A stretch of 64,000 nucleotides of DNA from Chryseobacterium gleum (GCA_945871895.1 CAMBXP010000001.1:373-64372); one strand, 5' to 3'. Numbered from the stretch's first letter, positions 19,937-34,685 are shown. Made by a program: numbers and translations. Notes: generated by a model from the letters alone, not told the origin.

Positions 19937-20695
19937 ATGTTGCGCTCTAGAATAATTCCTAGTTTATTGGTTCACAAAAAAGGCTTGGTGAAAACCGTAA
20001 ATTTTAAAGACCCCAAATATGTGGGTGACCCAATCAATGCGGTTAAAATTTTCAATGAAAAGGAAGTAGATGAGTTGATTGTGTTAGATATTGATGCTAC
20101 CGTAAACAAGAAAGAGCCCGACTTCGAAATGATTAAAAATTTGGCAGCTGAATGCAGAATGCCCTTTTGTTATGGTGGCGGTGTTACTTCGGTAGAACAC
20201 GCCAAAAAAATTATTAAACTGGGTGCAGAAAAAGTGGCTTTAAGTGCCGCGGCTATTGCTAATCCTGAGTTGGTGACCAAGATATCTGAAGAGATAGGTG
20301 CGCAAAGTGTAGTGGTGGTTTTAGATGTAAAGAAGAAAGGTTTGTTTGGGAAATACGAGGTGTTTACGCACAACGGAACCAAAGCTACAGGAAAATCTCC
20401 GTTTGAATTGGCCGAAGATTTTGAGCGCCGAGGAGTTGGTGAAATTGTATTGAACAATATTGATACTGAAGGCACTATGAAAGGCTTCGATTTTAAATTG
20501 ATTGATGGTGTGCGCGAGATCATTTCAAAGCCTATGACGGTGTTGGGTGGCGCAGGAGATGCAGAGGATATTAAAAAGGTAATTGATAAATATAAAATCA
20601 TTGGTGTGGCTGCAGGAAGCCTTTTTGTTTTTAAAGGAAAATACCGTGCGGTGCTCATTAATTACACGCCTTACAATTCTTTGTTTAATTTATAA
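19937..20695 (+). CDS. HisF-like cyclase subunit (O-antigen paralogue)
   Basis: TIM-barrel HisA/HisF pattern (VLDID, GGGV, VLNNIDTEGT, GGAG). Confidence 0.85.
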   Translation: MLRSRIIPSLLVHKKGLVKTVNFKDPKYVGDPINAVKIFNEKEVDELIVLDIDATVNKKEPDFEMIKNLAAECRMPFCYGGGVTSVEHAKKIIKLGAEKVALSAAAIANPELVTKISEEIGAQSVVVVLDVKKKGLFGKYEVFTHNGTKATGKSPFELAEDFERRGVGEIVLNNIDTEGTMKGFDFKLIDGVREIISKPMTVLGGAGDAEDIKKVIDKYKIIGVAAGSLFVFKGKYRAVLINYTPYNSLFNL

Positions 20696-21147
20696 TGTCG
20701 GTTTTAAAAAAAATATACAAGTATTTTATTCGCTCAAATAACGAATCGCGTTATTTGGTGATAAAGGCTTTTTTTTATTGCGCTATGGTGCGTTTTTTAA
20801 TGCTATTTGTAAAGTATAAACGTTACGAAAAACGCTTGGGAAAAAGAGGAGTAGAATCAACAGAAGAGATAAGTGCCGAGCAATTTGAGTTGGTTAAGAA
20901 AGTGCGAAATGCGGTGCTTAGTGTAAGCAAAAACACCTTGTGGGAAAGCAAGTGTATGGTGCAAGCACTCTCTGCAAAGTGGATGTTAGAGAAATACAAT
21001 ATTCCATCTACCATTTATTTTGGCATTATGAAAGACCTCGAAAATCCTTCGGAATTGAAAGCACATGCTTGGTTAAAAGTGGGCGAATATATTGCCACCG
21101 GTAGAGAAGGCCACAAAAGTTTTAAAGTGGTGAATTTTTATTCTTAA
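20695..21147 (+). CDS. Lasso peptide biosynthesis B2-like transglutaminase-fold cysteine peptidase (PF13471-like)
   Basis: 150 aa with a conserved Cys (ESKCMVQALS) and an HAW motif (KAHAWLKVGEY) spaced as in McjB-C/B2 proteins. The start overlaps the hisF-like stop codon (TAATG). Confidence 0.6.
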   Translation: MSVLKKIYKYFIRSNNESRYLVIKAFFYCAMVRFLMLFVKYKRYEKRLGKRGVESTEEISAEQFELVKKVRNAVLSVSKNTLWESKCMVQALSAKWMLEKYNIPSTIYFGIMKDLENPSELKAHAWLKVGEYIATGREGHKSFKVVNFYS

Positions 21148-22253
21148 CTGAATAAATAGGTGATAGGTCTCAACAAAGGATAGAGTATTCTTCTGCCAAA
21201 AGGAAGCTTCACAATATTCATATCTCTTAAAGGAAAAATACTCATTTGGTACAAGGTAAATTTCAAATGAGGCTTCATGAAAACGCGTTGTTTCCACTTG
21301 CTTATTTTCGAAATTTCTTTACCCGATAAAGATTTTAATCCTTGCAATACATAAGGTGCTTGCTTGTTATTTATTTTGTTCGAAAAGGCAGCAGGAATAG
21401 GCATTTCTAAAGCGACATTACATAAAGAAATAGTCCCTAAAAATAGGTTCTCAATTTTGTTTTTCTTGGCCAATTCAAATACTTCGTTTAATTCTTCTTC
21501 ATTGAATTTTTGCAGCAATAAAACAATATCAATTAACCACATCATTTTTTCCCAATAATGAATTTTACCATGCGCCATCAAATACAATAACGTGTAGGCG
21601 TTGTTCATTCTGTAGATTTTTCGATTGCAGTAATTTTCGGTAACAAGATATTCTGATGTGTCTCTGGGAATTGCTAGAATATACGGATTTTTAAACAGTT
21701 TGAAATGTACGTCTAGTTTACTTTTGGCTGGTGAAAAATAGCCTTTCTCATTGTCGATTTTTAAGAATAAGTCGTATTCTTTTGGGTTTAAATCGAAGTT
21801 CGGACTATCCAACACAAACCCTTTCTCCAATAGTATTTTTTCAAGTTTAGTAAGATCTGCTGGAGCAACACAAATGTCTACATCGGTGGAGGTGCGCATG
21901 TTGTTGTTGCCATAAATCATTTCGTTGATAGGATGCCCTTTAAACAACACCATATCTATATTATTTTCTTTTGCTAAATCAACAATCTTTAGCAAATCAG
22001 CTTGCAACAATAGATTTTTGGTGAGCGATTTTTTAGCTCTTTTTACAAGTGCTTTTTTAATATTTTCCAATTCAGGAAAACGCTCTATATGAGCGGCAAT
22101 AAAAGCATTTAGATTATTTCTTGATATGAATTGAATCAATTGATCGTGATCGTAATTCACAGCAGGTAATGGCTCTTTGGTATTGAACAGAATGGTTTTC
22201 ACTATGGCCAAAACCATTTGAAATTCGGGGGTGATATAAGAGTGTTTGTTCAA
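21144..22253 (-). CDS. Nucleotidyltransferase-fold protein of the PF14907 type that co-occurs with lasso kinase clusters
   Basis: hG-S...DVDICV pol-beta-like NTase motif, about 370 aa, next to the B2 gene. Confidence 0.5.
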   Translation of the reverse strand: MNKHSYITPEFQMVLAIVKTILFNTKEPLPAVNYDHDQLIQFISRNNLNAFIAAHIERFPELENIKKALVKRAKKSLTKNLLLQADLLKIVDLAKENNIDMVLFKGHPINEMIYGNNNMRTSTDVDICVAPADLTKLEKILLEKGFVLDSPNFDLNPKEYDLFLKIDNEKGYFSPAKSKLDVHFKLFKNPYILAIPRDTSEYLVTENYCNRKIYRMNNAYTLLYLMAHGKIHYWEKMMWLIDIVLLLQKFNEEELNEVFELAKKNKIENLFLGTISLCNVALEMPIPAAFSNKINNKQAPYVLQGLKSLSGKEISKISKWKQRVFMKPHLKFTLYQMSIFPLRDMNIVKLPFGRRILYPLLRPITYLFS

Positions 22254-22286: not shown

Positions 22287-22502
22287 TTATATTTTCTTTT
22301 TCCCCATATGCATGATCCAGCGCATTTTGTAGTTCTTTTTAAAGGCAATTAGAAATTCTTCTTTAGTAAAATTGAAGTGATGTTGTTGAGCAAAAAGCTG
22401 AATGCTCTCAAAACTTTTATTTTGAAGTGCTTTCATGTCATTTTGAAAATCGTTGTCTTCAAATGATTTTTGGAAGAATAGAATTGCGTCTTTTTCGCAC
22501 AT
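22287..22502 (-). CDS. Nif11-like domain small protein (71 aa)
   Basis: The pattern F.K...D..FQ..MKAL......E.I...A.Q..FNFTKEEF matches the Nif11/NHLP leader consensus (..aFleKvk.D..Lqeklka...eevv.lAke.GfeFtaeEl). Confidence 0.45.
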   Translation of the reverse strand: MCEKDAILFFQKSFEDNDFQNDMKALQNKSFESIQLFAQQHHFNFTKEEFLIAFKKNYKMRWIMHMGKKKI

Positions 22503-22546
22503 TATAACTAATTTGCGCTAAAATACAATTAAAATATAAATGCCTT

Positions 22547-23719
22547 ATGGATATTGATTTTGAATCGATGGGTTTTTTACTTGATCCTCACGAAACATAC
22601 GATAAGATTTTCGCTAGCCAGCCTATATTTTATTCTCAAAAGTATGGGGCTTGGATTTTTGCTGATTTTGCTACCGTTAAGTTGGCATTAAGTGATGATG
22701 AAAACTTCGCATATAACAAAAGAATAAAGCCAGCTGGAATTCAACAAAGCAGTTCAGGCAAACTTTTGGCGAATTGGATTTTAAATCAAACAGAAGAAGA
22801 TCATAAAACATTTAAACGAATTATTGGCACTTTTTTTTCCTCAAGTGCTGTTGGTCGTTTGGAGTTATATATGCAAGAAGAAACGCGTAAGATTTGTGAC
22901 GGATTTAACGAACAAGAAATTGACTTAGCTGATGTGTATGGCAATTTTTTTCCAATGAAATTAATGACAAAGATTTTAGGACTTAGGGAAGTTGATTTTG
23001 ATGTTATCAAAAAAGCGTCAAGAATGGCCGAACATTACGCCTATTTTCCTAATACCGATAAAGACAAAAAAATATTTGAGTTTGCTGTTTTCACATTAGA
23101 GAAATTTGTTAAAAATATTCTTGAAAACAATCATTATAGTAATGACGGACTGATTCACCATTTAGCATCATTCTATAAAAATGGTGAGATTACCTTAGAT
23201 GAGTTAGTTAGCAATACAATTTTGTTTGTAATAGCTTCTATCGAAACAACGAGTTATTCCCTAAACAATGCGCTCATGTTGTTACTCAAGTATCCCGAGC
23301 AACGAGCCTTGTTTCTGCAGAATAGTGATAAAGCAAATCAATATATTGATGAGTTAATGCGCTTTGAATCTTCTGTAAGTTATGTTAGGCGTTTTGCAGT
23401 CAAAGATTTTGATATGGCAGGGAATAAAATTAAAAAAGGAGATTTGGTTTTACTACTTGTAAATGCAGCTAACCGAGACCCTCTTGTTTATAATGAACCT
23501 AATGAATTCAATCTCGAAAGAGAGCATATTAAAAATTTAGCTTTTGGGCATGGGGTGCACGTATGTTTAGGATTGCATTTAGCAAAAATGGAAATCAAAG
23601 TAGCTACTACTTATTTTTTTAATAGGTATCCAAAGTGTGAGCTAGTAAATGAAACAGTTCAGTGGAATGATAGGTTTGGCTTTAGGGGAATTGTAAAGAT
23701 GAATGTAAAACTGAATTAG
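22547..23719 (+). CDS. Cytochrome P450
   Basis: FGHGVHVCLG heme-thiolate loop, the EXXR motif (ELMRFES) and an ASIETTS I-helix. Confidence 0.9.
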   Translation: MDIDFESMGFLLDPHETYDKIFASQPIFYSQKYGAWIFADFATVKLALSDDENFAYNKRIKPAGIQQSSSGKLLANWILNQTEEDHKTFKRIIGTFFSSSAVGRLELYMQEETRKICDGFNEQEIDLADVYGNFFPMKLMTKILGLREVDFDVIKKASRMAEHYAYFPNTDKDKKIFEFAVFTLEKFVKNILENNHYSNDGLIHHLASFYKNGEITLDELVSNTILFVIASIETTSYSLNNALMLLLKYPEQRALFLQNSDKANQYIDELMRFESSVSYVRRFAVKDFDMAGNKIKKGDLVLLLVNAANRDPLVYNEPNEFNLEREHIKNLAFGHGVHVCLGLHLAKMEIKVATTYFFNRYPKCELVNETVQWNDRFGFRGIVKMNVKLN

Positions 23720-23720
23720 T

Positions 23721-25748
23721 ATGTCGGTATTACAAAATGATTTATTTAAGATTTTCAAGCAAGATATTTCTTTGCTTTCTTCGCCAGAACAGTTAAAGCA
23801 AATTGAAATAATTTCCAAGTTATTACCTCCTATTTATCGCTCTGCAATTGAAGTAAGATTGGGTGATGATGATACCGTTGATTTTCACGTTAATATAAAA
23901 ACTGAAGATGATATTTCCTCCATATTGTTGTTTTTTAAAGAGTCAGGGTTTTATGAGCAACCAAAATGGAGCCCTTTGCTACATTTTTTAGAATTGTGGG
24001 AAAGCAATACTTATGATTTCCGTCATATAATTCCAGGTATATTTTTAGAGTATGATTTGTCTAAAAATGATGAACTCTATCAGGTGCCGTCTTTGTTTGT
24101 TAAAGTTGCGGTAGAAAAATTGAGCGCACAGCAAACTTATTCTTTGATAGAAAAATTAATACTAACTGTAAAAGGCGAAGATTATTTTAATGTATTTAAA
24201 GCTTTGCTTAGGCAAATTATTTTTACTGAGAAAGATTGTAAACTAGGTTACTTAGGCTTTATGCTTTCTCGTCCTGAGGAACTTTTACGCATTAATATTT
24301 ATAAAATTACAGCAATAGAAGTTGTGCCATTTTTAGAGCGATGCGGATGGAAAGGCAATGCTGGTGTTGTGAAAGATTGGGCGAAAAAAGTATCTGTTTA
24401 CTGTGATAAATATGTAGTGAGTTTCGATCTGTACAAAGATGCGGTGTTGCCTGCTATAGGCTTGGAGTGTTTTTGGAATAAATTACCCGATGAAGAGCCA
24501 CGTTGGTCTTTATTACTCGATGAATTGATGGAGCAAAACTTATGTACTTTAAGCAAGAAATCTTTGTTTTTGGAATGGAAAAAGGAGTTACTTCCTTTCG
24601 AAACGCAACAACCTTGGCCAGAACATTTGGCGATAGAATCTTTGTTGCGAAATGAGAAAGATTTTTCGAAGATAAAACAGTTGGTGAGTCACCTAAAAAT
24701 TTCTATTTCTTCTTTGGGAGATATTTCTGCAAAAGCATATTTGGGCTATGGAAATATATGGTTAAATAATTCTAAGGAGAAGATTACTAGGTCTTTGGCT
24801 CAATGTGAAAGTAGCGAAGAATCTGCACAGAAAGCCATTCAGTTTTTACTAAGTGAGCAACAGCAGTCGGGTTTTTGGAAAGATTTTGAAATATTTAAAG
24901 GGGCAGCAGATCAATGGGTGACCGCTTATGTAGCATCTGCATTGAATGAGACGAATTCAAAGAGTGAAGTTCTAGCTGCAATCAATAGAGCGTGGTGCGC
25001 ATTGAAAGATACTTTCAGAGAGGGTGAAGGATGGGGCTATAATTTTTATACTCCTTGTGATGGAGATAGCACCGCATGGAGTTTATATCTTGCCTCATTT
25101 TGTGATCCATCATTTTATATGAGGCATAAAACGCTTATTGAAAGATATAAGGGTGCCGATGGTTTGCTGACTACCTATGTTGACGAAGAGGATATATTGC
25201 GTTACATAAACCTTCAACCTGAATCGGGAATACTGGGTTGGAACTCTTCTCACCTTTGTATTTCAGGTGTTGCAGCGAAATTGGAGGGATCTTGTTCCAT
25301 TGAAGCTATAGCAAGTAAGCAAAACGAGCAGGGCTATTGGCAGGGCTATTGGTGGCAGCACCATAGCTACACTACTTACTATTGTTTGAAAGCCTTAATG
25401 GCAGAAGATAGTAAGTTTGATGGGCAAATCAATAAGGCAAGAAGGTGGTGGAGAGAGCAAGATTTTGCATCAATAGACAGCATTTTTTATCGTGCGTTAT
25501 GGGTTGAAATTGGATTGTTACTTAGAGAAGATAAAAGTATTATTGATAATGCCATAGCCTCTATTATGAAGGAGCAATTGGTGAGCGGATCATGGATAGG
25601 AGATGCGCGTATTATAGTGCCGATGCCCAATCATCTTTTACAAAATTCATCTTTAAGTTGGCTGAAGCATGATGTGAATGGTATTTTCACTACAGCTACT
25701 TGTTTACGTTTGTTAACGAATTACCAAAATCATTATGGAAAAAAGTAA
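23721..25748 (+). CDS. Two-domain protein: unknown N-terminal about 350 aa plus a C-terminal prenyltransferase/squalene-oxidase-repeat (QW-motif alpha/alpha-toroid) domain
   Basis: C-terminal repeats QQQSGFWKD, NEQGYWQGYWWQHH and QLVSGSWIGD resemble terpene-cyclase QW motifs. There are only 2 nt between the P450 stop and this start. Confidence 0.5.
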   Translation: MSVLQNDLFKIFKQDISLLSSPEQLKQIEIISKLLPPIYRSAIEVRLGDDDTVDFHVNIKTEDDISSILLFFKESGFYEQPKWSPLLHFLELWESNTYDFRHIIPGIFLEYDLSKNDELYQVPSLFVKVAVEKLSAQQTYSLIEKLILTVKGEDYFNVFKALLRQIIFTEKDCKLGYLGFMLSRPEELLRINIYKITAIEVVPFLERCGWKGNAGVVKDWAKKVSVYCDKYVVSFDLYKDAVLPAIGLECFWNKLPDEEPRWSLLLDELMEQNLCTLSKKSLFLEWKKELLPFETQQPWPEHLAIESLLRNEKDFSKIKQLVSHLKISISSLGDISAKAYLGYGNIWLNNSKEKITRSLAQCESSEESAQKAIQFLLSEQQQSGFWKDFEIFKGAADQWVTAYVASALNETNSKSEVLAAINRAWCALKDTFREGEGWGYNFYTPCDGDSTAWSLYLASFCDPSFYMRHKTLIERYKGADGLLTTYVDEEDILRYINLQPESGILGWNSSHLCISGVAAKLEGSCSIEAIASKQNEQGYWQGYWWQHHSYTTYYCLKALMAEDSKFDGQINKARRWWREQDFASIDSIFYRALWVEIGLLLREDKSIIDNAIASIMKEQLVSGSWIGDARIIVPMPNHLLQNSSLSWLKHDVNGIFTTATCLRLLTNYQNHYGKK

Positions 25749-26016: not shown

Positions 26017-26127
26017 ATGGAAAACAAGAAAACTTGGGTTAGTCCCCAATTTAATTTAGTGGATGTAGATTCAACGGCTTCTGGACCCTTTGGAACTTCG
26101 GTGGAATCAGGATCATACGGTTCATAA
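26017..26127 (+). CDS. Candidate lasso peptide precursor (36 aa), MENKKTWVSPQFNLVDVDSTASGPFGTSVESGSYGS; not in the ORF track
   Basis: ATG at 26017 and TAA at 26125. It has Thr at -2 of the putative leader/core junction (..DSTA|SGPFGTSVE..). The core SGPFGTSVE with Glu9 parallels the paeninodin core AGPGTSTPD with Asp9. The C-terminal Ser sits immediately upstream of the HPr-kinase-like gene. Confidence 0.5.
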   Translation: MENKKTWVSPQFNLVDVDSTASGPFGTSVESGSYGS

Positions 26128-26187: not shown

Positions 26188-27096
26188 TTGTATTTTCGCC
26201 CCATGCAAAAAAAGTACATCGCAGGGGGAATCATCATTGAAACAGATATTGAATTTCCCGAGTTAATTTTGACAGAAGGCCCAACAGATGTTGTTTTGGC
26301 TTATGGCAAAGTGCCTGGGGAGCTGCCTAATGTTAAAAATGAAAAAGCTTTGTTTTCAAGCAATGAAAACGAAGTATTGTTTAGAATGCCCGATATCGCG
26401 AGATATTTAATTGAAGGGTATTCAAAAATCACCATAGAATTAATAGACGAAAAAAGAAAAGCTGATGCTGAAAAGTATATTCTTACTTTTATTTTAGGCG
26501 TTTTATCTTTCAAAAAAGGCTTTTACCCTTTGCATGGCGGTGGCGTTATACACAACGGCGAAGCGTATTTGTTTACTGGTCATTCTGGTGCTGGTAAATC
26601 TACCACTATGGCAGGTTTGCAACAAAGAGGTTTGCAGCCCGTGGGCGACGATATAGCGAATCTTTTTGTGAAAGATGGTAAAGTATATGTTCATCCTTGT
26701 TTTCCGCGTTTTAAACTGTGGAAAGACTCATTGAATTTTTTAAATAAGAAGGGTTCTGGAGAGTATCATTTGCGCAGCGACATGGAGAAATTTTTAGTGC
26801 CTATGGGCGATGATTTTTCTATTGAACCTGTGCCAGTAAAAAGAATCTATTTGTTGGTGGAAGACCGCAATTTCGAGTATTCATTTAAGGAAATTAAAGG
26901 GAAAGAAAAATTGCAGCGTTTAAAAGTAAATAGCTACAAACCTTGGATGGTAAAAGCTTTTTCTTTGAACCAATTGCATTTCGGATTGATGAATGATATT
27001 GTGGGTAAGCTTGAAATCACAGAATATCACCGGCCGCTCGACAAAGCAAACCTTGAGAAAATGTACGATTTATTGATCGAAAACATCAAGGCCTAA
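26188..27096 (+). CDS. HPr-kinase-like serine kinase (candidate lasso peptide kinase)
   Basis: HGGGVIHNGEAYLFTGHSGAGKSTT P-loop, as in HprK C-terminal domains and lasso precursor kinases. Confidence 0.6.
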   Translation: MYFRPMQKKYIAGGIIIETDIEFPELILTEGPTDVVLAYGKVPGELPNVKNEKALFSSNENEVLFRMPDIARYLIEGYSKITIELIDEKRKADAEKYILTFILGVLSFKKGFYPLHGGGVIHNGEAYLFTGHSGAGKSTTMAGLQQRGLQPVGDDIANLFVKDGKVYVHPCFPRFKLWKDSLNFLNKKGSGEYHLRSDMEKFLVPMGDDFSIEPVPVKRIYLLVEDRNFEYSFKEIKGKEKLQRLKVNSYKPWMVKAFSLNQLHFGLMNDIVGKLEITEYHRPLDKANLEKMYDLLIENIKA

Positions 27097-27965
27097 TGTT
27101 TACTCCACAAAAGAGAATAATTTGGCTAACGTCTTATCCTAAGTCGGGAAATACTTGGATGCGCTTGTTTTTACATGCTCTGCACACAGGTTCTAGCGAG
27201 TTACTAAATTTAGAAGACATTGAAGCTACCAACGGCATTGCTTCTTCTCGCGCATTAATCGACAATAATTTAGGTGTATACACTTCTGATATGCCCGATC
27301 TAGATGTACAGAAATTAAGAGGAGAAGCCTACAAATATTGGTCATCGGTATTGACAGATGATGTTATTGTAAAAGTACACGACGCAGCTTTTCATCGCGG
27401 AATCGTCACTTTTCCTAAAGAAGTAACGAAGAAAGTAATTTTCATTGTGCGCAATCCTTTTGATATGGTGGCTTCTTATGCTAACCATATGGGCTGCGAT
27501 ATCAAAATGGCTGTTTGGATGTTGTGCGATGGAAACAATACTTTAGCTAAATCGAAAAACAGATTAGGAACACAAGTGTCTCAGTACATGGGCTCGTGGA
27601 GCGATTATTACAACAGCTGGAAGAATTTGTATCGTGATGAAATGATAGTGGCGCGCTACGAAGACATGAAGCACGATTCACTCAATACTTTTAGAAAGGT
27701 GGTTGATACTTTGGGTTGGAACAAAACGGATGAAGATATTTTAAAAGCATTAGAGGCCAGTAAATTCGATAAAGTAAAGAGTTTAGAGAACGATAAAGGC
27801 TTTAAAGAGAAACCTCCCAAAACGGAAGCTTTTTTTCGTAAAGGTCAAACTGGAGGATGGAAGAATGAAATTACTGCAGAGCAAGCTCAAATTCTAGTTG
27901 ACAGACATTTTTATACTTTATTGGAATTAGGGTATATTGATGAAAAAGGGGTCATTTTAGTGTAA
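27096..27965 (+). CDS. Sulfotransferase-domain protein
   Basis: YPKSGNTWMR 5'-PSB motif and a downstream RNP..D 3'-PB region. The start overlaps the kinase stop. Confidence 0.75.
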   Translation: MFTPQKRIIWLTSYPKSGNTWMRLFLHALHTGSSELLNLEDIEATNGIASSRALIDNNLGVYTSDMPDLDVQKLRGEAYKYWSSVLTDDVIVKVHDAAFHRGIVTFPKEVTKKVIFIVRNPFDMVASYANHMGCDIKMAVWMLCDGNNTLAKSKNRLGTQVSQYMGSWSDYYNSWKNLYRDEMIVARYEDMKHDSLNTFRKVVDTLGWNKTDEDILKALEASKFDKVKSLENDKGFKEKPPKTEAFFRKGQTGGWKNEITAEQAQILVDRHFYTLLELGYIDEKGVILV

Positions 27966-28039: not shown

Positions 28040-29863
28040 ATGTCTAGTATTTACGGTTACACAGGAAAAAAAGAAGCCCAAAAATTGATGAGTAATGCCT
28101 TACGTCATTGGCAGCCCGATCGAGAAAATTTTATAGAACGCGAAGCCTTTACTTTGGGCGCATTAGAGCTTTTCAAAACACCCGAATGTCCGCTTGTTGC
28201 GCTGCCTTATGCCTATAAAAATTTCCACATAGTAGCAGATTGTAGAATAGATAATCGTGAGGAGTTGGCAAAGGAATTAGGTGTTAGCGACATTTCAAAA
28301 CACAGTGACATCGAATTTATTGCGCGTGCATATGAGAAGTATGGAGAGGATGCGCCAAAGAAATTAAAGGGAGATTTTGCCTTTGTCATTTGGGATGAAA
28401 GTAATCAAGAGCTTTTCGCTGCTACAGATCACTTTGGTGTTCGAACTTTGTATTATACAGTAGTTGAAAATCAATTGATTTTTGCTAGTGAAATGAAGGG
28501 GATTTTGGCCTATCCTACTTTCAAAAAAGAGTACAATGAAGCCTATATCGTAAGTCAGTTTTCTGCCTTGCAAATTCCTATTCAAGATACCTTTTATTTG
28601 AATTTGTTTTTGCTTCCTCCAGCGCATCATTTTACTTTTAAAAACGGCAAATTAGACCAAAAAAAATATTGGACATTAGGAGATACTGTTGTTGAAATAC
28701 CCGCTACTGTTGCCCAGCAAGAAGCCGAATTTAATCGATTGGCTTATCAAAGTGTTCGCTCACGATTACGCAGTTACAAAAAAATTGGTGCCGAGGTGAG
28801 TGGAGGGTTGGATTCTACAGGTATTGCTGCTGCGGCTATGGAGATTTTAGGTAAGGGGCACCCTTTTTATTCTTATTGTTATGGTAAGCCCGATGTTTCT
28901 GCGGGAGATCACGACCAAAAAGACGATACCCATGTAGTGCGTGAGATGTGTAAAAAATACGATATTGAGCAATATTTCACGGTGGTGAATGAGAAAGATT
29001 TGTTAGCTGATGATTTATTGAAGACAATGTGCACTGTTTACGATGATATAGAGAGCAATGGTGTGCCTTTGTTTACCGCTTCATTTTTGCCACACGCTCA
29101 GAAAAATGATGTTGGTATTATGTTTTCGGGATGGGCTGGAGACCAAATGGTAACCGATACCTGTGGTGGTTTTCCTGAAGCTTTGGCGTACGAAAAAAAC
29201 TATATAGGTTTGTGGAAAGATATTATTCGTAGGCATAATTTTGTAGGCAGTGTTGCACGTTTTTGGGTGTATGCTATTAAGTGCTGGAACAGCAAAGGTT
29301 TTTACAATCTCAATGTAGATAAGCAAAGAAAACTGTTGCAAGATTTTCATTTAAAAAAGTCATTTATTCAAAAATACAAATTAGACACATTACCAGGGTT
29401 GCGTTATTATTTAAAAAGTTGTACCGACATACGTACTTATCATTTTCGCAATCTTCAACATGCTGGTATTCAAAAACGAACTTGTGATCATGTGTTAATG
29501 GGCAAGCACTTTAAAGTAGATTATCGTTTTCCTATGTTGGATTTAAATTTCTTGGAATACATTAATTGTTTGCCTTTTGATACCATCGCGCCGAAGGGGA
29601 AAAATAGGTATCTGTACAAACAATTTGCTGCACCATTGGTACCACAGGAATTACTTAGAGTACATAAAAGCAAAGTGCCTACGACACCCTTTGCTTATAA
29701 GTACATGAAGGATAATTTGCCTTTTTTTATAGAACAATACAAATCGTTGGAAAAAAGTACGTTTAATGATTTTGTGGATTCTTCATCGTTAGATGTTGAT
29801 TCAGGCAATTCAAATCACAAAGAGTATTTGCGCATGTATTTCTTTGCTAAAAAGATGCGTTAG
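28040..29863 (+). CDS. Asparagine-synthetase-like lasso cyclase (lasso C protein)
   Basis: AsnB-like N-terminal domain without the Cys2 nucleophile (MSSIYGY) and the SGGLDS PP-loop. Length about 600 aa. Confidence 0.75.
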   Translation: MSSIYGYTGKKEAQKLMSNALRHWQPDRENFIEREAFTLGALELFKTPECPLVALPYAYKNFHIVADCRIDNREELAKELGVSDISKHSDIEFIARAYEKYGEDAPKKLKGDFAFVIWDESNQELFAATDHFGVRTLYYTVVENQLIFASEMKGILAYPTFKKEYNEAYIVSQFSALQIPIQDTFYLNLFLLPPAHHFTFKNGKLDQKKYWTLGDTVVEIPATVAQQEAEFNRLAYQSVRSRLRSYKKIGAEVSGGLDSTGIAAAAMEILGKGHPFYSYCYGKPDVSAGDHDQKDDTHVVREMCKKYDIEQYFTVVNEKDLLADDLLKTMCTVYDDIESNGVPLFTASFLPHAQKNDVGIMFSGWAGDQMVTDTCGGFPEALAYEKNYIGLWKDIIRRHNFVGSVARFWVYAIKCWNSKGFYNLNVDKQRKLLQDFHLKKSFIQKYKLDTLPGLRYYLKSCTDIRTYHFRNLQHAGIQKRTCDHVLMGKHFKVDYRFPMLDLNFLEYINCLPFDTIAPKGKNRYLYKQFAAPLVPQELLRVHKSKVPTTPFAYKYMKDNLPFFIEQYKSLEKSTFNDFVDSSSLDVDSGNSNHKEYLRMYFFAKKMR

Positions 29864-29902: not shown

Positions 29903-30193
29903 GTGGAAAATCAACTTGATATGGAATTGACTCAAAAAATCGCTCGCAGTGATAATTTCGTTTTTAACGAGGTAGATGGCGAGTTAGTAATGATGAATAT
30001 TGAAACTGGTGCTTATGCATCATTGAATGAAACAGGGAAATCAATTTGGACTTTGTTAGATGCCCCTAAAAGTTTATCTGAAGTAGTTAGTTCTTTGGTT
30101 GAAGAATACGAAATCGATCAAGCTACTTGTGAAAAAGAGGTGTTGCCATTTGTAGAAAATATGTTGAAAAGTGAAGTTTTAATAAAAGCATAA
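29903..30193 (+). CDS. PqqD-family RiPP recognition element (lasso B1 protein)
   Basis: 96 aa with the FNEVDGELVMMNIETGAYASLNETGKSIWTLL pattern typical of PqqD/B1 proteins. Confidence 0.7.
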   Translation: MENQLDMELTQKIARSDNFVFNEVDGELVMMNIETGAYASLNETGKSIWTLLDAPKSLSEVVSSLVEEYEIDQATCEKEVLPFVENMLKSEVLIKA

Positions 30194-30315
30194 TAATGGA
30201 AATGAATAATGTAAAGAAAGTTTGGATTTCGCCAGCTTTTACCCAAGAGTTATTGATTAACACTAATAAACTCCCCAATGCTATAGAAACCACCACTTCT
30301 TTTAGTACCTGATGC

Positions 30316-31224
30316 ATGTATCGCTATCGAATTCAATCATTAAATGAAAAACAGCAGAATCTTTCTGCTGTTTTTGTTGATGCCCATATCAAAGAAATTG
30401 AAACCTGTATTAAAGGTATAAGAGATGTTTTTGATGTGCTTTGGAGTACTTCTACAATTGATTCTTCTTACCCTTCCATTTCACAAGAAATTCAAACTTA
30501 TAAATCCCGACAAAGAAAAAATGATTTAGCGCTTTATCCTGTTGGTTTTTGCTATCCTATTACTCAGTTTTGTTTTAAAATATTACATCAAAACCTTCAA
30601 GAAAATACGCAACATATTGTACAGCGCTATTTGGATGAGGGTGGTGTTTTGAAAATTATTTGGGGTGATTTACGCGGTGAATATTTTCAAACAGCAATAC
30701 AGTTAGGCGATTGGTACATTGATTTGGCGTACGATGCGATAGATAGAAATAAACCTAAAATTCGTTGCGCTCGTTTTCATGAATCTGACTTTAAAGACAT
30801 CACTTCTTTTCAGCAGTATATTTGTATTAAAGAACAGTACCATAAAGGAGAAATATATATAAACAATATTCTACCCGAATTATTTCCTCATTTTCCTTTT
30901 ATTTTTGAGAATACTGAAGGGCGAATTTCGATAGAGGAATCTGAATATGTGCGCGCTTTGTTGGAGGACAAAGATACAGATGTGCTGACAAGCTATCTCC
31001 GTGATGAATCGGCTTTGAAATTTCTTGATCTTGAGCAAAAGGAAAGAATTAAATCGGCATTGTCGAAAATTGGCGAAGCTTATGTTTACTTTCCCTTCTT
31101 ACAATTTAAAGAATTAGATACGAGCCAATTACTTGCTAAAATTGAAAAAGAAAAAATTAATTCAATGCCCTCTGTTTTACCTAAAGTGGTGAACAACATC
31201 AATTTCATGCTTTCACTATGTTGA
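30316..31224 (+). CDS. Hypothetical protein (302 aa) inside the RiPP cluster
   Basis: No family recognised from sequence. Same strand as the C and B1 genes. Confidence 0.3.
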   Translation: MYRYRIQSLNEKQQNLSAVFVDAHIKEIETCIKGIRDVFDVLWSTSTIDSSYPSISQEIQTYKSRQRKNDLALYPVGFCYPITQFCFKILHQNLQENTQHIVQRYLDEGGVLKIIWGDLRGEYFQTAIQLGDWYIDLAYDAIDRNKPKIRCARFHESDFKDITSFQQYICIKEQYHKGEIYINNILPELFPHFPFIFENTEGRISIEESEYVRALLEDKDTDVLTSYLRDESALKFLDLEQKERIKSALSKIGEAYVYFPFLQFKELDTSQLLAKIEKEKINSMPSVLPKVVNNINFMLSLC

Positions 31225-31227
31225 TAT

Positions 31228-32430
31228 TTACAACAATTCAATTTCGCTTTTCAACTTTTTCAATTCATATTTAAGGGAGATTTCGTCTCCCTTTTTTACG
31301 TTTTTTACTTTGGGTAAATAGAATATTTTTAATCCCCAATGGTTGTCTTCATTTATTTTATTTTGTGCTAAAGATAGTGTGTTTTCTTCGCTCAGTGTCG
31401 CTTCAAAATAAACATGAATTCCGTTCAATTCTCCTTCTTTATCTATGGTTATTTGATGCGTACTTAATTTTTGAAAATCAGTCTTTTCATCGAAATGTAC
31501 ATCTATTACTTTAAGAGGAGAAGATAAAGCCTTGCATTTCTTTAAATCTACATTACTCATGTTTAGCAGAACTGGCTTTTCATCAACATAATTTTGAAAA
31601 GCAGAGAAATCAACCTGGTAATCTTTTTTCCAGGTTTTGATGTTGTTTTCGTGCACCAAACTATTGGTGTATTTTTCATTGGGCATTTCAAAAGTTTGTA
31701 AGTAAATCGCTATGCTTTCAGGAATCAGTTTTGCCTTGGGCGTTAACAATCGCTTTTTAGCATCTTCAAAAGTGCCTAATATACCTTCGTCGAACGCGTC
31801 GTTTCCAATAATTTCACTAATTAAAACACTAGCCTTTTCGGGCAGCTCTATATCTCTAGAATCCCCTTTAATTAAAGTGATTTTATCTTCTAAACCGTTG
31901 GCTTTAAATACTGCCCTGGCTACCTCAATAAACTCGGTTCTTTCTATTGCATAAACATGTTTTGCACCGCACATCGCCGCTGTAGCCGCTAAAATACCGT
32001 TGCCAGTTCCTATATCTAAAACAATATCATTGGGTGTTACTTTAGCCCGAATGGCTTTTTGAAAAGCTAAGGTGCGCGTTTTGTCATTCAACATTCTTAC
32101 ATGAACAGGAAATGAATCAAACTTACTACCGTGAAAACTAAAGGTATTTTTTGCTTCGTCTTTCACATCAAAAAATCCTTTTTTTAATAGCTCATGAAAG
32201 TTGCTGCTTACGCCAAAAAAATCATTTTTGTGTTTGCATTTTTCGGCCATTAATTTAGTGCCTTCTTCAATGCTTTTCCATTTGCTAAAAATATCAAGAA
32301 TAATGAGTGAAGCGTAGTTTAAAGGCAATTTCTGTTGATCGAATTTTACTACCCAGCCGAGTTCAGTAAATTCAACTTTTAAGCCTTTTTTAAAACGAAT
32401 GATATCTTTCTTATTCATAAAGACAAACAT
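31228..32430 (-). CDS. Class I SAM-dependent methyltransferase, PRMT-like
   Basis: VLDIGTGNGILAATAAMCGA motif I, a post-I acidic residue (YAIE), and the SEI/THW-like region of protein arginine MTases. Confidence 0.65.
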   Translation of the reverse strand: MFVFMNKKDIIRFKKGLKVEFTELGWVVKFDQQKLPLNYASLIILDIFSKWKSIEEGTKLMAEKCKHKNDFFGVSSNFHELLKKGFFDVKDEAKNTFSFHGSKFDSFPVHVRMLNDKTRTLAFQKAIRAKVTPNDIVLDIGTGNGILAATAAMCGAKHVYAIERTEFIEVARAVFKANGLEDKITLIKGDSRDIELPEKASVLISEIIGNDAFDEGILGTFEDAKKRLLTPKAKLIPESIAIYLQTFEMPNEKYTNSLVHENNIKTWKKDYQVDFSAFQNYVDEKPVLLNMSNVDLKKCKALSSPLKVIDVHFDEKTDFQKLSTHQITIDKEGELNGIHVYFEATLSEENTLSLAQNKINEDNHWGLKIFYLPKVKNVKKGDEISLKYELKKLKSEIELL

Positions 32431-32466: not shown

Positions 32467-34125
32467 ATGCAAAAACTTAAGGCGGTACTTTCCTTTTTCC
32501 AATTGATGCTTTCCCACTTTCGGTGGAAGGTTATTCTCATTATACTTTTAGGAATTTCATTTTCTGTGTTTCAAGGTGTTGGTATCGTAATGGTGATACC
32601 GCTCTTAGAAGCTTTTCAGCACAAGGCCAAATCGCGTTTCACTCCCTTTTTTGAGTATTTCAATTTTGAGCAAACTTTAGGCAATTTACTTTTGCTTTAT
32701 TTTTTGGTGCTGCTGATGTTCGCCATTTTTAAGGCCTTGCAGATTTTGTACACGCAGCGCACTATCTCTAAATTTTCCAACAAAATAAATATCGATTCAA
32801 TACAAAAATTGTTGCACGCCAATTGGGAGTTTTATTTAAAAGTTCCTTCTTCGCAATTGCTCAATATGCTCAATACAGAAGCGCGTCAACTGCGTTCTTT
32901 GGCCAATCAACTGTTTCAATTTATTCAAAACGTAATTTTGATTGTTATTCAATTGTTTTTTGCTTTTTGGATTTCGGCTAAACTTACCTTGGTACTAATT
33001 TTTGTTTTGGCTATTTTGTTTGTTATGCAGCGTTTTGTGTTTAGAAGGAATTACGATTTGGGCCGCGGACAAATTAAAAATTCAGAAGGAATTCAAAAGT
33101 ATTTGAACGAGACTTTTAAAGGAATCAAATTGCTTAAATTACATGGTTTAGAATTGCAACGAGGTGAGGAATATAAAGCTCATTTAGATGGCATGTACCT
33201 CAATGAAGAGAAGAAAGCAAGGATTGAGGCTATGAGCGATTTGGTATACACCTTAAGCGCATCCATGCTGCTAATTGCTATTATTTGGTATAGCTTAACT
33301 TTTACTGCTATCACCGTGGGTTCTTTGCTTATTTTGTTGGTGTTATTCTCGCGTGTTATTGCGCAAACTTTAAGTTTGGTGAAGGTGAGTTCTCATATTA
33401 CGAACATGATTCCATCTTATGTGCGGTTTACTGAGGTGTTGGCCATTGCCGAACAACACCAAAATAATTCTCCGGTGCCGAAAGATAAAATGGCTATTGA
33501 TTCCATAGAATTGCGCGATATTCATTTCGCTTTCGCCGATAAAAAAATATTAGAAGGCATTAACCTTAAATTCGAAAAAGGAAAATTTTATGTGCTAACC
33601 GGACCAAGCGGTGTGGGTAAAACCATTACTTCCGATTTGATTTGCGGACTAATTACTCCCAAAAGTGGCGATATTTTAATCAACGGAGAAGTAAAATCTA
33701 CCGAAGAATTAAAATACTATCAGTCTTCTACTTCTTACGTTTTGCAAGATACTGTGATGTTTGGTTCTACCGTAAAAGCGAATATTACTTTCTTTGAGAA
33801 GTACAGTGACGATGAAATTAATGCCGCAGTAGATAAAGCCGGCTTGCGCAGTTTACTTGATAAATTACCCGATGGTTTAGATAGCGAAGTAAAAGAAGAC
33901 AATCGCGGTTTCTCGGGCGGCGAACTTCAACGCATGGCTATCGCTCGCGCCATCATTAGAAAAACTCCGCTTATCATTTTAGATGAGGTAACGAATACAC
34001 TCGACAGAAAAAATGAAGACATTATTTTGGCTACCATCAACAACATCAAAAAAGATGGAATTGTGGTGCTGATTACACATAAAGAATATTTGTTTGATTT
34101 GGCTGATGAGGTGGTGAGACTGTAG
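32467..34125 (+). CDS. ABC exporter with fused TMD and NBD (lasso D-type candidate)
   Basis: Six N-terminal TM helices, Walker A GPSGVGKT, signature FSGGELQR and Walker B ILDEVT. Confidence 0.85.
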   Translation: MQKLKAVLSFFQLMLSHFRWKVILIILLGISFSVFQGVGIVMVIPLLEAFQHKAKSRFTPFFEYFNFEQTLGNLLLLYFLVLLMFAIFKALQILYTQRTISKFSNKINIDSIQKLLHANWEFYLKVPSSQLLNMLNTEARQLRSLANQLFQFIQNVILIVIQLFFAFWISAKLTLVLIFVLAILFVMQRFVFRRNYDLGRGQIKNSEGIQKYLNETFKGIKLLKLHGLELQRGEEYKAHLDGMYLNEEKKARIEAMSDLVYTLSASMLLIAIIWYSLTFTAITVGSLLILLVLFSRVIAQTLSLVKVSSHITNMIPSYVRFTEVLAIAEQHQNNSPVPKDKMAIDSIELRDIHFAFADKKILEGINLKFEKGKFYVLTGPSGVGKTITSDLICGLITPKSGDILINGEVKSTEELKYYQSSTSYVLQDTVMFGSTVKANITFFEKYSDDEINAAVDKAGLRSLLDKLPDGLDSEVKEDNRGFSGGELQRMAIARAIIRKTPLIILDEVTNTLDRKNEDIILATINNIKKDGIVVLITHKEYLFDLADEVVRL

Positions 34126-34160: not shown

Positions 34161-34382
34161 TTAATCTGTAATGAAAATGACTTCATTATTTGAGTAGCTT
34201 AGACTTCCTTGGCGCAACATATATTCGGTTTTATGTGCTTTTACAAATTCTTCTGCGGTAAAATCGAAATTTAACTTTTTGGCTTGTTCTAAAATCTCAG
34301 AAACCTCCATATGATTGGTATCCAAAATTATTTCCTTCTTTCTCACTTTAGAGATGAATTGTACAGCGCTATTGATACTCAT
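34161..34382 (-). CDS. Nif11-like small protein, paralogue of 22287..22502
   Basis: From the internal Met: MSINSAVQFISKVRKKEIILDTNHMEVSEILEQAKKLNFDFTAEEFVKAHKTEYM. It aligns along its length with the first Nif11-like ORF (F.K., NF.FT.EEF, K..Y.M). The longer track ORF 34161..34442 probably over-extends. Confidence 0.4.
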   Translation of the reverse strand: MSINSAVQFISKVRKKEIILDTNHMEVSEILEQAKKLNFDFTAEEFVKAHKTEYMLRQGSLSYSNNEVIFITD

Positions 34383-34596
34383 GATGAAATTTATGCAGAG
34401 CCAGGGTGGCCATGGTGGTGGTGAATAAATTGTTTTGATCAATTAAGAAGTTAGCCGTCCCATCATTTTTAAGCATTTGAGCGTCGCCCCTCCAATTACC
34501 TTTTTCTGTTTGGTGTTGTAAGATGAATTCAACAATGGGTTCGATATTGAACGCAGATAGTTTGCAATGCATAGCACTTAAGGTGAGCAGCGACAA
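34369..34596 (-). pseudogene. Remnant of a second QW-repeat gene: a 75-aa ORF homologous to the last 65 aa of the 23721..25748 protein
   Basis: FILQHQTEKGNWRGDAQ...LFTTTMATLALHKFHHEY aligns with SIMKEQLVSGSWIGDAR...IFTTATCLRLLTNYQNHY at the C-terminus of the 675-aa protein. Confidence 0.4.
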
Positions 34597-34685
34597 ATGA
34601 AAAATATTTTGATTGTTTTCGCTGTTTATTATTTGTCTGCCAAATTACATATTTTCAATTCGAATATTTACCTATATTCGATTGT

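Follow-up and report, generated by a model that had tools for sequence, protein, structure and literature searches.

A probable terpenoid-tailoring module in a lasso peptide cluster of Chryseobacterium gleum: a prenyltransferase-cyclase fusion with a Nif11-like partner protein

To our knowledge, prenyltransferase-cyclase (PC) maturases, of which two have been characterized, are the only route to peptides that carry polycyclic terpenes. The substrate of one of these enzymes, NctPC, is reportedly a proteusin-type precursor with an NHLP leader. The enzyme type was first described in 2024 (Hubrich et al., Chem, via the review PMC13290415). As the review summarizes it, NctPC consists of an ABBA prenyltransferase (P) domain fused to an MstE-like cyclase (C) domain, and it geranylgeranylates a peptide Trp and then cyclizes the chain, whereas the P domain of ChrPC, from the same study, resembles trans-isoprenyl-diphosphate synthases rather than ABBA enzymes (PMC13290415). 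MstE itself (merosterolic acid synthase, PDB 6SBB and related structures) stands alone and cyclizes a geranylgeranylated small aromatic acid.

Leader dependence is known among the ABBA prenyltransferases of lanthipeptide pathways, such as MppC, which requires the Nif11-like leader of its substrate (PMC12715784). Lasso peptide clusters of the paeninodin/pseudomycoidin type encode split B1/B2 proteins, the lasso cyclase C, an HPr-kinase homologue, a precursor ending in Ser, an NTP_transf_5 protein and a sulfotransferase (PMC9266682, PMC8498205). The kinase function of the HPr-kinase-like gene is taken from work on paeninodin (PMC9266682). In pseudomycoidin, the NTP_transf_5 homologue uses the C-terminal phosphate as a handle for the addition of hexoses (PMC9266682; its role is also described in PMC8498205).

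Here, we report an analysis of a PC homologue encoded in a 64,000-nucleotide stretch of Chryseobacterium gleum DNA (GCA_945871895.1 CAMBXP010000001.1:373-64372), hereafter the window. The initial annotation of this DNA, made from the sequence alone, had singled out a small Nif11-like ORF, a P450 and a protein with terpene cyclase-like repeats, and had proposed a second, non-lasso peptide-modification module or, equally, a terpenoid side-branch. We favor another reading, namely, that the region is a terpenoid-tailoring module of a kinase-type lasso peptide cluster, in which PC modifies the lasso peptide and the Nif11-like protein is accessory; we put the probability of this reading at roughly 55%. 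The features on which the analysis draws are as follows.

20695..21147, plus strand: lasso leader peptidase B2 (NCBIfam lasso_biosyn_B2, E 1.4e-22)
21144..22253, minus strand: NTP_transf_5 nucleotidyltransferase, PsmN-like (Pfam, E 6.1e-36)
22287..22502, minus strand: Nif11-domain small protein, 71 aa (Pfam Nif11, 24.3 bits; independent family HMM, E 2.9e-11; homologues in 46 of 53 PC loci)
22547..23719, plus strand: cytochrome P450 of the generic bacterial CYP107-like type (Pfam p450, E 5.8e-29)
23721..25748, plus strand: 675-aa PC protein, a prenyltransferase-cyclase fusion in a single ORF
23721..24755, plus strand: P domain of PC, residues 1-345, predicted ABBA prenyltransferase barrel (AF2 model, Foldseek matches in the PDB)
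24813..25748, plus strand: C domain of PC, MstE-like class II terpene cyclase (phmmer, Foldseek, Pfam SQHop_cyclase_C)
25059..25079, plus strand: putative catalytic acid motif of PC, D447-G-D449-S-T-A-W (alignment with MstE; conservation)
26017..26127, plus strand: lasso precursor peptide, 36 aa, leader MENKKTWVSPQFNLVDVDSTA and core SGPFGTSVESGSYGS, the split assuming Thr at -2 and an S1-E9 ring (ORF; leader motif and C-terminal Y-x-S)
26188..27096, plus strand: HPr-kinase-like protein (weak Hpr_kinase_C and HprK_rel_A matches; conserved position)
27096..27965, plus strand: sulfotransferase, a tailoring gene of the cluster (Pfam Sulfotransfer_1, E 1.2e-24)
28040..29863, plus strand: lasso cyclase C, asparagine-synthetase-like (NCBIfam lasso lactam cyclase, E 1.8e-74)
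29903..30193, plus strand: PqqD-like B1, RiPP recognition element (Pfam PqqD, E 2.5e-18; NCBIfam lasso_PqqD_Bac, 79 bits)
32467..34125, plus strand: ABC exporter, 552 aa, without a peptidase domain (domains read in the identical contig L003)
34164..34644, minus strand: relic of a second PC/Nif11 pair (PC-family and Nif11-like family HMMs)

The three ORFs of the initial annotation (22287-22502, minus; 22547-23719, plus; 23721-25748, plus) are located where it had placed them. The 71-aa ORF and the P450 gene diverge across a gap of 44 bp, and the former is the first gene of a minus-strand pair, with the NTP_transf_5 gene downstream, an arrangement that recurs in loci L001, L006-L009 and L096. 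The P450 stop codon, TAG, is followed after 1 nt by the ATG of the PC gene, so that the P450 is translationally coupled to PC. The lasso precursor lies 269 nt downstream of PC, and B1, B2 and C are encoded in the vicinity; B1 scores 79 bits against a cut-off of 80 with an "exception"-type model. Judged by its encoded B2, PqqD/B1, lasso cyclase and 36-aa precursor, the lasso cluster around PC is real. It has the components of paeninodin/pseudomycoidin-type clusters listed above, with a candidate for the HPr-kinase homologue and with the sulfotransferase, which is also found in L016-L018; the prenyltransferase-cyclase, the P450 and the Nif11-like protein, all present here, are not described in the two reviews of such clusters (PMC9266682, PMC8498205). 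Against the favored reading, no prenyl diphosphate synthase gene was found within the window.

By sequence, the N-terminus of PC, ~350 aa that the initial annotation had found unrecognizable, indeed has no match: residues 1-350 hit nothing in Pfam, NCBIfam or the sequences of the PDB, and the same holds for the whole P-domain family, which comprises 3693 clusters at 50% identity. Structure prediction and a Foldseek search, suggested at the outset, gave an answer. Modelled alone, the P domain shows five aa-bb repeats (AF2, pLDDT 89.7), and in the predicted full-length structure (pLDDT 85.5) the five repeats precede an alpha/alpha toroid. The best 50 PDB matches of the P domain, down to E 2e-6, are all ABBA aromatic prenyltransferases, and its fold matches include EpzP, MpnD, AmbP1/3, NphB, CloQ and DMATS, at a Foldseek probability of 1.0. 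The predicted fold of the N-terminal 345 residues is thus the barrel of aromatic prenyltransferases of the ABBA type (five alpha-alpha-beta-beta repeats). The similarity is one of fold only, the domain lying outside the curated ABBA sequence families (Trp_DMAT, Orf2-type and cyanobactin F-type). Invariant residues of the P domain are E44, D54, E110, D112, R184, R190, E249, K279, K326, K338 and Y340, and the model places the conserved Arg, Lys and Tyr on barrel strands; the predicted fold and the conserved charged residues suggest that the domain is catalytically competent. C domains also occur fused to at least one further family of ABBA-like N-domains, which, like the lack of sequence matches for the P domain, counts against the favored reading.

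In the remainder of the protein, the three squalene-cyclase-type QW repeats quoted in the initial annotation are all present (QQQSGFWKD, 380-388; NEQGYWQGYWWQ, 535-546; QLVSGSWIGD, 619-628), and the HMMER search that it had proposed for such repeats places SQHop_cyclase_C above its cut-off (29.5 versus 26.1 bits; E 4.9e-7). The nearest solved relative is MstE, which the C domain matches clearly (phmmer, E 1.2e-28; Foldseek, E 4.5e-16, TM 0.77-0.80, 28% identity), and the best matches are monodomain cyclases of 345-367 residues. The ~310 residues of the C domain make up one barrel, and the beta-gamma double barrel of SHC/OSC/CPS is absent. D447-G-D449-S-T-A-W aligns with GDADTTGW of MstE, and six full-length homologues all keep D447, D449, T451 and W453; either D447 or D449 is presumably the counterpart of MstE D109. 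The corresponding acid motif of squalene-hopene cyclase is DxDDTA. This canonical DxDD(TA) is absent from PC, which has D-G-D-S-T-A, Ser standing in for the last Asp, and homologues have Ser or Thr at this position. Sequence comparison clearly identifies the C domain as a homologue of MstE, a class II terpene cyclase of the monodomain type, with a D-x-D-[S/T]-T motif kept. As to whether the closest homologues are bona fide class II cyclases with DxDD, which the initial annotation regarded as decisive against its proposal, MstE, a bona fide class II cyclase, is the nearest solved relative, whereas the nearest sequence homologues are peptide-cluster fusions, and the motif reads DGDS. Squalene-hopene and oxidosqualene cyclases share the QW-type repeats, the alpha/alpha toroid and the position of the acid motif, but have two barrels (beta-gamma) and DxDD or DCTA.

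A predicted ABBA P domain and an MstE-like C domain together define the 675-aa protein as a prenyltransferase-cyclase fusion, and the suggestion in the initial annotation of a prenylating and cyclizing enzyme of a peptide pathway gains support. Compared by published description only, it resembles NctPC in being a single polypeptide in which an ABBA domain precedes a monodomain class II cyclase of the MstE-like kind, in its location in a RiPP cluster, and in a P domain that, in NctPC, has low similarity to cyanobactin prenyltransferases. With ChrPC, as that enzyme is summarized, it shares the fusion, the MstE-like C domain and a ribosomal peptide as the proposed substrate (PMC13290415). NctPC acts on Trp, whereas PC sits in a lasso cluster with Trp-free cores and a stand-alone Nif11-like protein alongside. 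With MstE, the C domain shares the single alpha/alpha barrel and the D-x-D-T/S-T motif; here, however, the cyclase is fused, and the chain is proposed to be peptide-bound.

The PC fusion is found within lasso operons across at least six phyla, and lasso genes occur in the fetched flank of 47 of the 53 species-level PC loci, which argues against a "second, non-lasso" module. The lasso-linked branch comprises ~48 species-level loci from Bacteroidota, Cyanobacteria, Actinomycetota, Proteobacteria, Acidobacteriota, Nitrospirota and candidate phyla. The usual gene order is PqqD, lasso cyclase, precursor, HPr-kinase-like gene and PC, with the kinase homologue directly upstream of PC in most loci. 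The co-occurrence of Nif11-like ORFs with QW-repeat proteins, which the initial annotation had proposed to examine, is pronounced: the small protein is encoded in 46 of the 53 fusion loci and in none of 27 cyclase-only loci, and is a conserved partner. That the two genes move as a pair is likewise shown by the relic in the window, in which the final ~90 codons of a PC gene (34372-34644; E 6.5e-6 over positions 606-697 of the 702 in the PC-family HMM) overlap an intact second Nif11-like ORF (about 34164-34382; E 9.6e-11 with a family HMM built without window sequences). It appears that no member of the lasso-linked branch has been characterized and that no product of this branch is known.

The P450, whose best solved relatives are BioI and EpoK, is a recurrent neighbor of PC in several lineages. 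A P450 gene adjoins PC or lies within 2 kb of it in L016, L017, L035, L037, L041, L051, L053, L056 and L093, and one homologue (P0015) is a fusion of a cyclase domain with a P450.

The 71-aa ORF, with its Nif11 domain at the N-terminus, narrowly passes the Pfam Nif11 cut-off (PF07862; 24.3 versus 23.8 bits), with members of its PC-partner family reaching up to 44 bits, and falls below that of the RiPP-precursor model TIGR03798 (14.5 versus 32.3 bits; positions 1-48 of 68 matched). A family HMM built from 47 homologues from other genomes, with the window and its closest relatives left out, finds the ORF at E 2.9e-11 among 1011 window ORFs. In a comparison with a strain whose protein is 89% identical, 10 codon changes are synonymous and 8 non-synonymous, and third positions account for 11 of 19 substitutions. 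Given the HMM match and this pattern of codon changes, the ORF is a real, conserved gene.

The initial annotation had raised the possibility that this protein is a Nif11-type precursor with a Trp-containing tail as the site of prenylation or cyclization. In a broader form of the idea, which we consider rather unlikely, the Nif11-like protein itself is the substrate and a second ribosomal product of the lasso cluster: PC would prenylate Y58 (Trp in most lineages) or W62 and cyclize the chain, and the P450 would help where the residue is not Trp. The tail motif of the family, AF..[DN][WYF].[ML]R, contains a nearly invariant aromatic position (W in ~40 of the 48 aligned members covering it, otherwise Y or F), and the characterized PC enzymes and long-chain peptide prenyltransferases all target Trp (PMC13290415), which the lasso cores lack. 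Moreover, P domains, stand-alone or methyltransferase-fused, directly adjoin Nif11-type precursors of 101-113 aa (L011, L012, L014, L100), both clades with W replaced by Y or F have an adjacent P450, and Actinobacterial members carry an additional conserved tail, ..STVAVVN.P.SS, that could be a core. However, the aromatic residue is W, Y or F depending on the lineage (Y58 here; Phe, which is not directly prenylatable, in L041, L051 and L053), and so, by sequence, looks more like a residue for binding or on a helix face than like a prenyl acceptor; likewise, the A-F-x-x-D-W-x-M-R-W spacing puts the aromatics on one helix face, suggestive of packing or binding. The Trp of MRW (W62) is conserved only in Bacteroidota and a few other lineages, which detracts further from a Trp prenylation site. 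Besides the failure with TIGR03798, the ORF lacks both a GG or GA cleavage site and a variable core; its 21-residue tail is kept in ~50 homologues, and the whole 65-75 aa are conserved like a folded domain. No C39-peptidase transporter is encoded nearby, the 552-aa transporter having ABC_membrane and ABC_tran domains only, and the cluster contains no second protease. Were the product an independent RiPP, another explanation would also be needed for why it is so strictly tied to lasso operons (47 of 53 loci). We infer that the 71-aa protein is a leader-like accessory protein and not a precursor.

The lasso precursor ends in ..SGSYGS, and its core is without Trp. Precursors of ~45 PC loci share the leader motif and a C-terminal Y-x-S; the cores of PC loci end in Ser, their most conserved feature, nearly all have a Tyr 1-3 residues earlier, and none contains Trp. 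Both characterized PC enzymes modify Trp, an observation that runs against a lasso substrate; the only conserved Trp in PC loci is in the small Nif11-like protein, which, on precedent alone, favors that protein as the substrate. We know of no PC gene for paeninodin, a lasso peptide that also ends in Y-x-S; if there is none, the Tyr, instead of being an acceptor, may be a determinant for the kinase. The HPr-kinase-like protein, with sub-threshold matches only (Hpr_kinase_C, E 0.002; HprK_rel_A, E 2.4e-5), is expected, by analogy, to phosphorylate the C-terminal Ser of the precursor. In an improbable variant, the prenyl group goes onto this phosphate, and the resulting peptide-phospho-terpene would resemble a prenyl diphosphate, the classical class II cyclase substrate. 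We know of no ABBA enzyme that O-prenylates a phosphate, MstE naturally acts, by its PDB titles, on an aryl-linked rather than a phosphate-linked chain, and the kinase linkage may reflect common descent of one cluster lineage. Nevertheless, PC is confined to lasso clusters of the kinase type, where it usually comes straight after the kinase gene, no other core position is as well conserved as the C-terminal Ser, and the phosphate of pseudomycoidin is a handle for hexoses added via an NTP_transf_5 homologue (PMC9266682).

A terpenoid or meroterpenoid side-branch unrelated to the peptide, in which PC acts on a small aromatic metabolite and is in the cluster by chance, is very improbable because PC is strictly linked to peptide genes (lasso genes and the Nif11-like protein in 46-47 of 53 loci, in many phyla), P-domain relatives adjoin peptide precursors and no gene in the window would supply the aromatic acid, even though MstE acts on a small prenylated benzoate and most ABBA prenyltransferases act on small molecules.

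Thus, PC, the P450 and the Nif11-like protein probably attach a ring-closed terpene to a ribosomal peptide. Under the preferred reading, a terpenoid-tailoring module of the lasso cluster, primary metabolism would supply the P domain with a polyprenyl diphosphate, probably C15 or C20, which the domain would ionize, joining the prenyl chain to a nucleophile on the ribosomal peptide. The C domain would protonate the terminal double bond via D447-x-D449 and fold the chain into a polycyclic terpene, and the P450 would most likely oxidize the terpene part. The lasso peptide or its precursor (26017-26127) is the likeliest substrate and would be modified in the C-terminal tail, with the conserved Tyr or the phosphorylated C-terminal Ser as the acceptor. 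The 71-aa protein would be an obligate partner of the PC family, core-less and leader-like, and may bind or activate the P domain, given that stand-alone P-domain relatives act beside genuine Nif11-leader precursors. MppC and other leader-dependent lanthipeptide ABBA prenyltransferases likewise combine an ABBA fold with a link to a Nif11-like leader; for MppC, however, the leader is part of the substrate, there is no cyclase domain and GPP is used, whereas the Nif11-like domain here makes up a protein of its own, without a core (PMC12715784).

More specifically, and tentatively, the 71-aa protein might be a naturally occurring "leader in trans", a Nif11 leader without a core turned into a separate subunit that lets a leader-dependent PC modify a leader-less lasso peptide at a non-Trp acceptor (the tail Tyr or the phospho-Ser handle). 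If this is true, the product would be, as far as we know, the first terpene-annelated lasso peptide, with an acceptor chemistry new to the enzyme class. The lasso-linked branch would extend PC chemistry to lasso peptides, probably to a non-Trp acceptor, and the constant stand-alone Nif11-like protein offers an opportunity to test whether a RiPP leader can act as a subunit of its own, which is relevant to the engineering of leader-independent peptide lipidation.

The 675-aa protein lies in what is a complete lasso-peptide cluster. Besides the genes listed below, the window holds an HPr-kinase-like gene, a sulfotransferase, the lasso cyclase, the PqqD-like leader-binding protein B1 and an ABC exporter. 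The three ORFs of the initial annotation are present where it had placed them, with a single base between the P450 stop and the ATG of the 675-aa ORF, and the QW-like motifs that it had pointed out occur at residues 380-388, 535-546 and 619-628 of the encoded protein. No trans-prenyl diphosphate synthase was found within the window, so that the prenyl donor must derive from primary metabolism.

Features of the cluster and of a second, partial gene pair (window coordinates)
20695-21147, leader peptidase B2, part of the lasso cluster
21144-22253, minus strand, NTP_transf_5 nucleotidyltransferase, part of the lasso cluster
22287-22502, minus strand, small 71-aa ORF, as initially annotated
22547-23719, plus strand, P450, unambiguous Pfam match
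23721-25748, plus strand, 675-aa ORF, prenyltransferase-cyclase (PC) fusion, boundaries as initially annotated
26017-26127, lasso precursor, 36 aa
about 34164-34382, minus strand, second Nif11-like ORF, apparently intact (E 9.6e-11), containing ..FTAEEFVKAHKTEYMLRQ..
34372-34644, minus strand, relic of a PC gene, last ~90 codons (PC-family HMM, E 6.5e-6)

Pfam recognizes only the C-terminal part of the 675-aa protein (SQHop_cyclase_C, 29.5 bits). In an AlphaFold model built with 18 homologues (pLDDT 85.5), residues 1-345 form five consecutive alpha-alpha-beta-beta units, followed by a disordered linker and an alpha/alpha toroid. When the toroid was compared with the PDB using Foldseek, it matched MstE, a class II terpene cyclase with a single domain, from merosterolic acid biosynthesis (E 4.5e-16, 28% identity, TM 0.77-0.80), along with three further cyclases of ~340 residues, and the homology of this C domain to MstE is detectable from sequence alone (phmmer E 1.2e-28). 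The segment CDGDSTAW aligns with GDADTTGW of MstE, and D447, D449, T451 and W453 are invariant among full-length homologues, which indicates that the acid motif is retained as D-x-D-[S/T]-T rather than DxDD. A LanM/LanC-like toroid acting with a Nif11 leader was ruled out by the homology of the C domain to MstE and by the absence of a Cys/Ser/Thr core from the small ORF.

The N-terminal P domain was identified through structure prediction only: sequence searches against Pfam (no match in residues 1-350), NCBIfam and PDB sequences returned nothing. Modelled alone (pLDDT 89.7, pTM 0.89), its best 50 PDB matches are exclusively ABBA aromatic prenyltransferases (E down to 2e-6, probability 1.0), including EpzP, MpnD, AmbP1, AmbP3, NphB/Orf2, IptA, FamD1, CloQ, CdpNPT, 6-DMATS and FgaPT2. 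The invariant residues on the barrel strands (E44, D54, E110, D112, R184, R190, E249, K279, K326, K338 and Y340) include acidic and basic side chains, as would be expected of a diphosphate-binding barrel. Judged by sequence, the P domain defines a large family that matches neither a curated family nor a solved structure; it comprises 3693 clusters at 50% identity (E <= 1e-3, 1.84 billion representatives), mostly stand-alone proteins of 340-450 residues, whereas in some members the partner in a fusion is a methyltransferase, a 2OG-Fe(II) oxygenase or the cyclase domain.

Architecture of this kind has a precedent. According to a 2026 review (PMC13290415), which gives Hubrich et al., Chem 2024, as its source, NctPC joins a prenyltransferase domain of the ABBA-barrel fold to a cyclase domain resembling MstE; it geranylgeranylates a tryptophan of a peptide and then cyclizes the attached chain. 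In ChrPC, presented there as the analogous fusion, the P domain is trans-IDS-like. Like NctPC, the window protein combines an ABBA P domain and an MstE-like C domain in one chain, and it is very probably a PC-type fusion of an already known kind. No description of a lasso-linked member was found in the searched literature. The abstract of Hubrich et al. 2024 reportedly predicts PC units from genome data for proteusin, Nif11-like and lasso peptides. A search for NHLP-type precursors near the other cyclase-fusion families, undertaken to pinpoint NctPC, found none.

Another ABBA/DMATS-like N-terminal domain family, with one weak Trp_DMAT match, is likewise fused to MstE-like cyclase domains at eight loci from other genomes (L068, L079-L081, L084, L091, L094 and L095) and stands alone at a ninth (L099, 130-1134), ahead of a cyclase-P450 fusion. 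Neither lasso genes nor a Nif11-like protein were found at these nine loci.

The linkage to lasso genes extends far beyond the window. Scanning one genome per species with six full-length fusions yielded 80 loci, a set biased by its queries toward fusions, in which both domains are encoded at 53 loci, 47 of them as a single ORF. Searched by BLAST with the cluster proteins of the window, 43 of these 53 PC loci have the lasso cyclase, 38 have PqqD and 31 have the kinase-like gene, a figure that is too low owing to the divergence of that query; 47 have one or more genes of the lasso pathway. The usual order is PqqD, lasso cyclase, precursor, kinase, PC. Of the other six, one is truncated where its contig stops and five are divergent or of non-lasso type, such as L040, where a GG-leader peptide is present. 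The PC loci come from Bacteroidota, Cyanobacteria, Actinomycetota, Alpha- and Gammaproteobacteria, Acidobacteriota, Nitrospirota and candidate phyla, and looking up single homologues one by one left the picture unchanged. The fusion thus emerges as an integral component of a widespread type of lasso cluster, and we put the probability that it functionally belongs to the lasso pathway at roughly 0.8. As one possibility, the initial annotation had put forward a second, non-lasso module of this protein, the P450 and the Nif11-like ORF; an enzyme for prenylation and cyclization, accompanied by a P450 and a Nif11-like partner, is borne out, and its separation from the lasso pathway is not.

The initial annotation had matched the 71-aa ORF to the Nif11/NHLP leader consensus, a mark of RiPP precursors elsewhere; the ORF is probably not a precursor. 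It passes the Pfam Nif11 model by half a bit (24.3 bits, cut-off 23.8) and fails TIGR03798, the curated model for Nif11 precursors (14.5, cut-off 32.3), and there is neither a GG site nor a variable core. In close relatives (87-93% identity), which sit upstream of the nucleotidyltransferase gene, the C-terminal tail is nearly unaltered, with one I-to-L change. At the equivalent position, Chitinophaga encodes a 64-aa ORF ending in ..EELKKAFQIDWDMRWLKYSRQ, compared with ..EEFLIAFKKNYKMRWIMHMGKKKI in the window.

An HMM iterated from these sequences identified such an ORF, and never more than one, in 46 of the 53 PC loci, and one each in three further loci (L001, L009 and L010), usually directly after the PC gene and convergent with it or overlapping its stop. 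The only lasso-type loci lacking it are two (L037 and L049) where the contig ends ~1 kb or less from PC. With the same HMM, none was found in the five divergent or non-lasso loci (L040, L078, L083, L085 and L090) or in any of the 27 loci with a cyclase domain only. An HMM built without the window and its nearest relatives still retrieved the 71-aa ORF at E 2.9e-11, several family members clearly pass Pfam Nif11 (up to 44 bits), and a metagenome scan with the small-protein alignment gave only two loci, one with the usual nucleotidyltransferase and PC neighbours. The family is conserved over its entire 65-75 residues and closes with the motif A-F-x-x-[DN]-[WYF]-x-[ML]-R, in which most lineages have Trp at the aromatic position, while Tyr takes its place in the window's clade and Phe does so in L041, L051 and L053. 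An apparent PC-Nif11 fusion at L033 was dismissed as two overlapping genes in different frames. Actinomycetotal members (L039, L043, L052, L056 and L059) carry an extra conserved C-terminal tail, ..STVAVVN.P.SS, absent elsewhere, which might serve as a core or as a docking strand.

The window itself preserves a trace of a second such pair at 34164-34644, downstream of the ABC exporter and before a JmjC-like gene, where the PC remnant and the second Nif11-like ORF overlap; this shows that PC and the small gene move together. At a locus from a close relative (L006, 274-2558), an IS21-type element (transposase and IstB) lies beside the conserved 71-aa gene, in the place held in the window by the P450 and PC genes.

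The window P450 is of a generic bacterial type, and among solved structures BioI and EpoK are its best relatives. Five loci (L016, L035, L037, L041 and L053) have a P450 gene that abuts PC or overlaps it, four (L017, L051, L056 and L093) have one at most 2 kb away, and in an alphaproteobacterial clade the distance is a constant 5.8-7.9 kb. In one homologue, P0015, cyclase and P450 are fused, and a stand-alone ABBA-like protein of a different family precedes them. This recurrent coupling of P450 and cyclase suggests oxidation of the terpene part. In both clades in which the Trp of the small protein is replaced by Tyr or Phe (the window, L016, L017, L041, L051 and L053, from the small-protein alignment and the PC tree), a P450 gene adjoins PC, which amounts to two independent events only; Trp-type loci with a P450 against PC or within 2 kb number only three (L035, L056 and L093).

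As to the substrate, precursors recovered from ~45 loci have [YWF]xxPx[LIVMF]...Tx in common as a leader motif, and their cores contain no Trp. A final Ser is present in nearly all, preceded at a distance of 1-3 residues by Tyr (rarely Phe), as in ..SYGS, ..GYNS, ..GGYS and ..SAYS. This terminal Ser is the known site of phosphorylation by HPr-kinase-type enzymes, and in pseudomycoidin the phosphate is decorated further by an NTP_transf_5 homologue (PMC9266682, PMC8498205). Tyr and phospho-Ser are the two candidate prenyl acceptors, and the sequences favour neither over the other. That the small protein itself is the substrate is retained as the main alternative, because both characterized PC enzymes use Trp. 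We lean slightly towards the lasso peptide as substrate with the small protein as accessory factor.

Downstream in the window, a 38-aa ORF (30196-30312, plus strand, MEMNNVKKVWISPAFTQELLINTNKLPNAIETTTSFST) shares the leader motif of the lasso precursor, with a Thr end and without an obvious G/A/S/C at the core start, and may be a second or degenerate precursor. A 302-aa protein without family match, a PRMT-like methyltransferase (minus strand) and a JmjC-like oxygenase, at 30316-32430 and 34686-35855, may be additional tailoring genes.

Cyanobacterial P domains, stand-alone or fused to methyltransferases, adjoin true Nif11-type precursors, which are long (101-113 aa) and in some cases combine a GG site with a core that is rich in Cys or ends in Trp. 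Two of the methyltransferase fusions (L011, 7840-11869; L014, 4347-8190) come after a gene for a haem peroxidase and a Nif11-like peptide of 107-113 aa whose last residues are ..CRW or ..ARVW, and look like an uncharacterized RiPP type. The ABBA prenyltransferase MppC acts on a lanthipeptide and requires that substrate's Nif11-like leader (PMC12715784). We infer that the P-domain family may have evolved recognition of Nif11 leaders, and that in lasso clusters the Nif11 leader would persist as a separate, core-less accessory protein.
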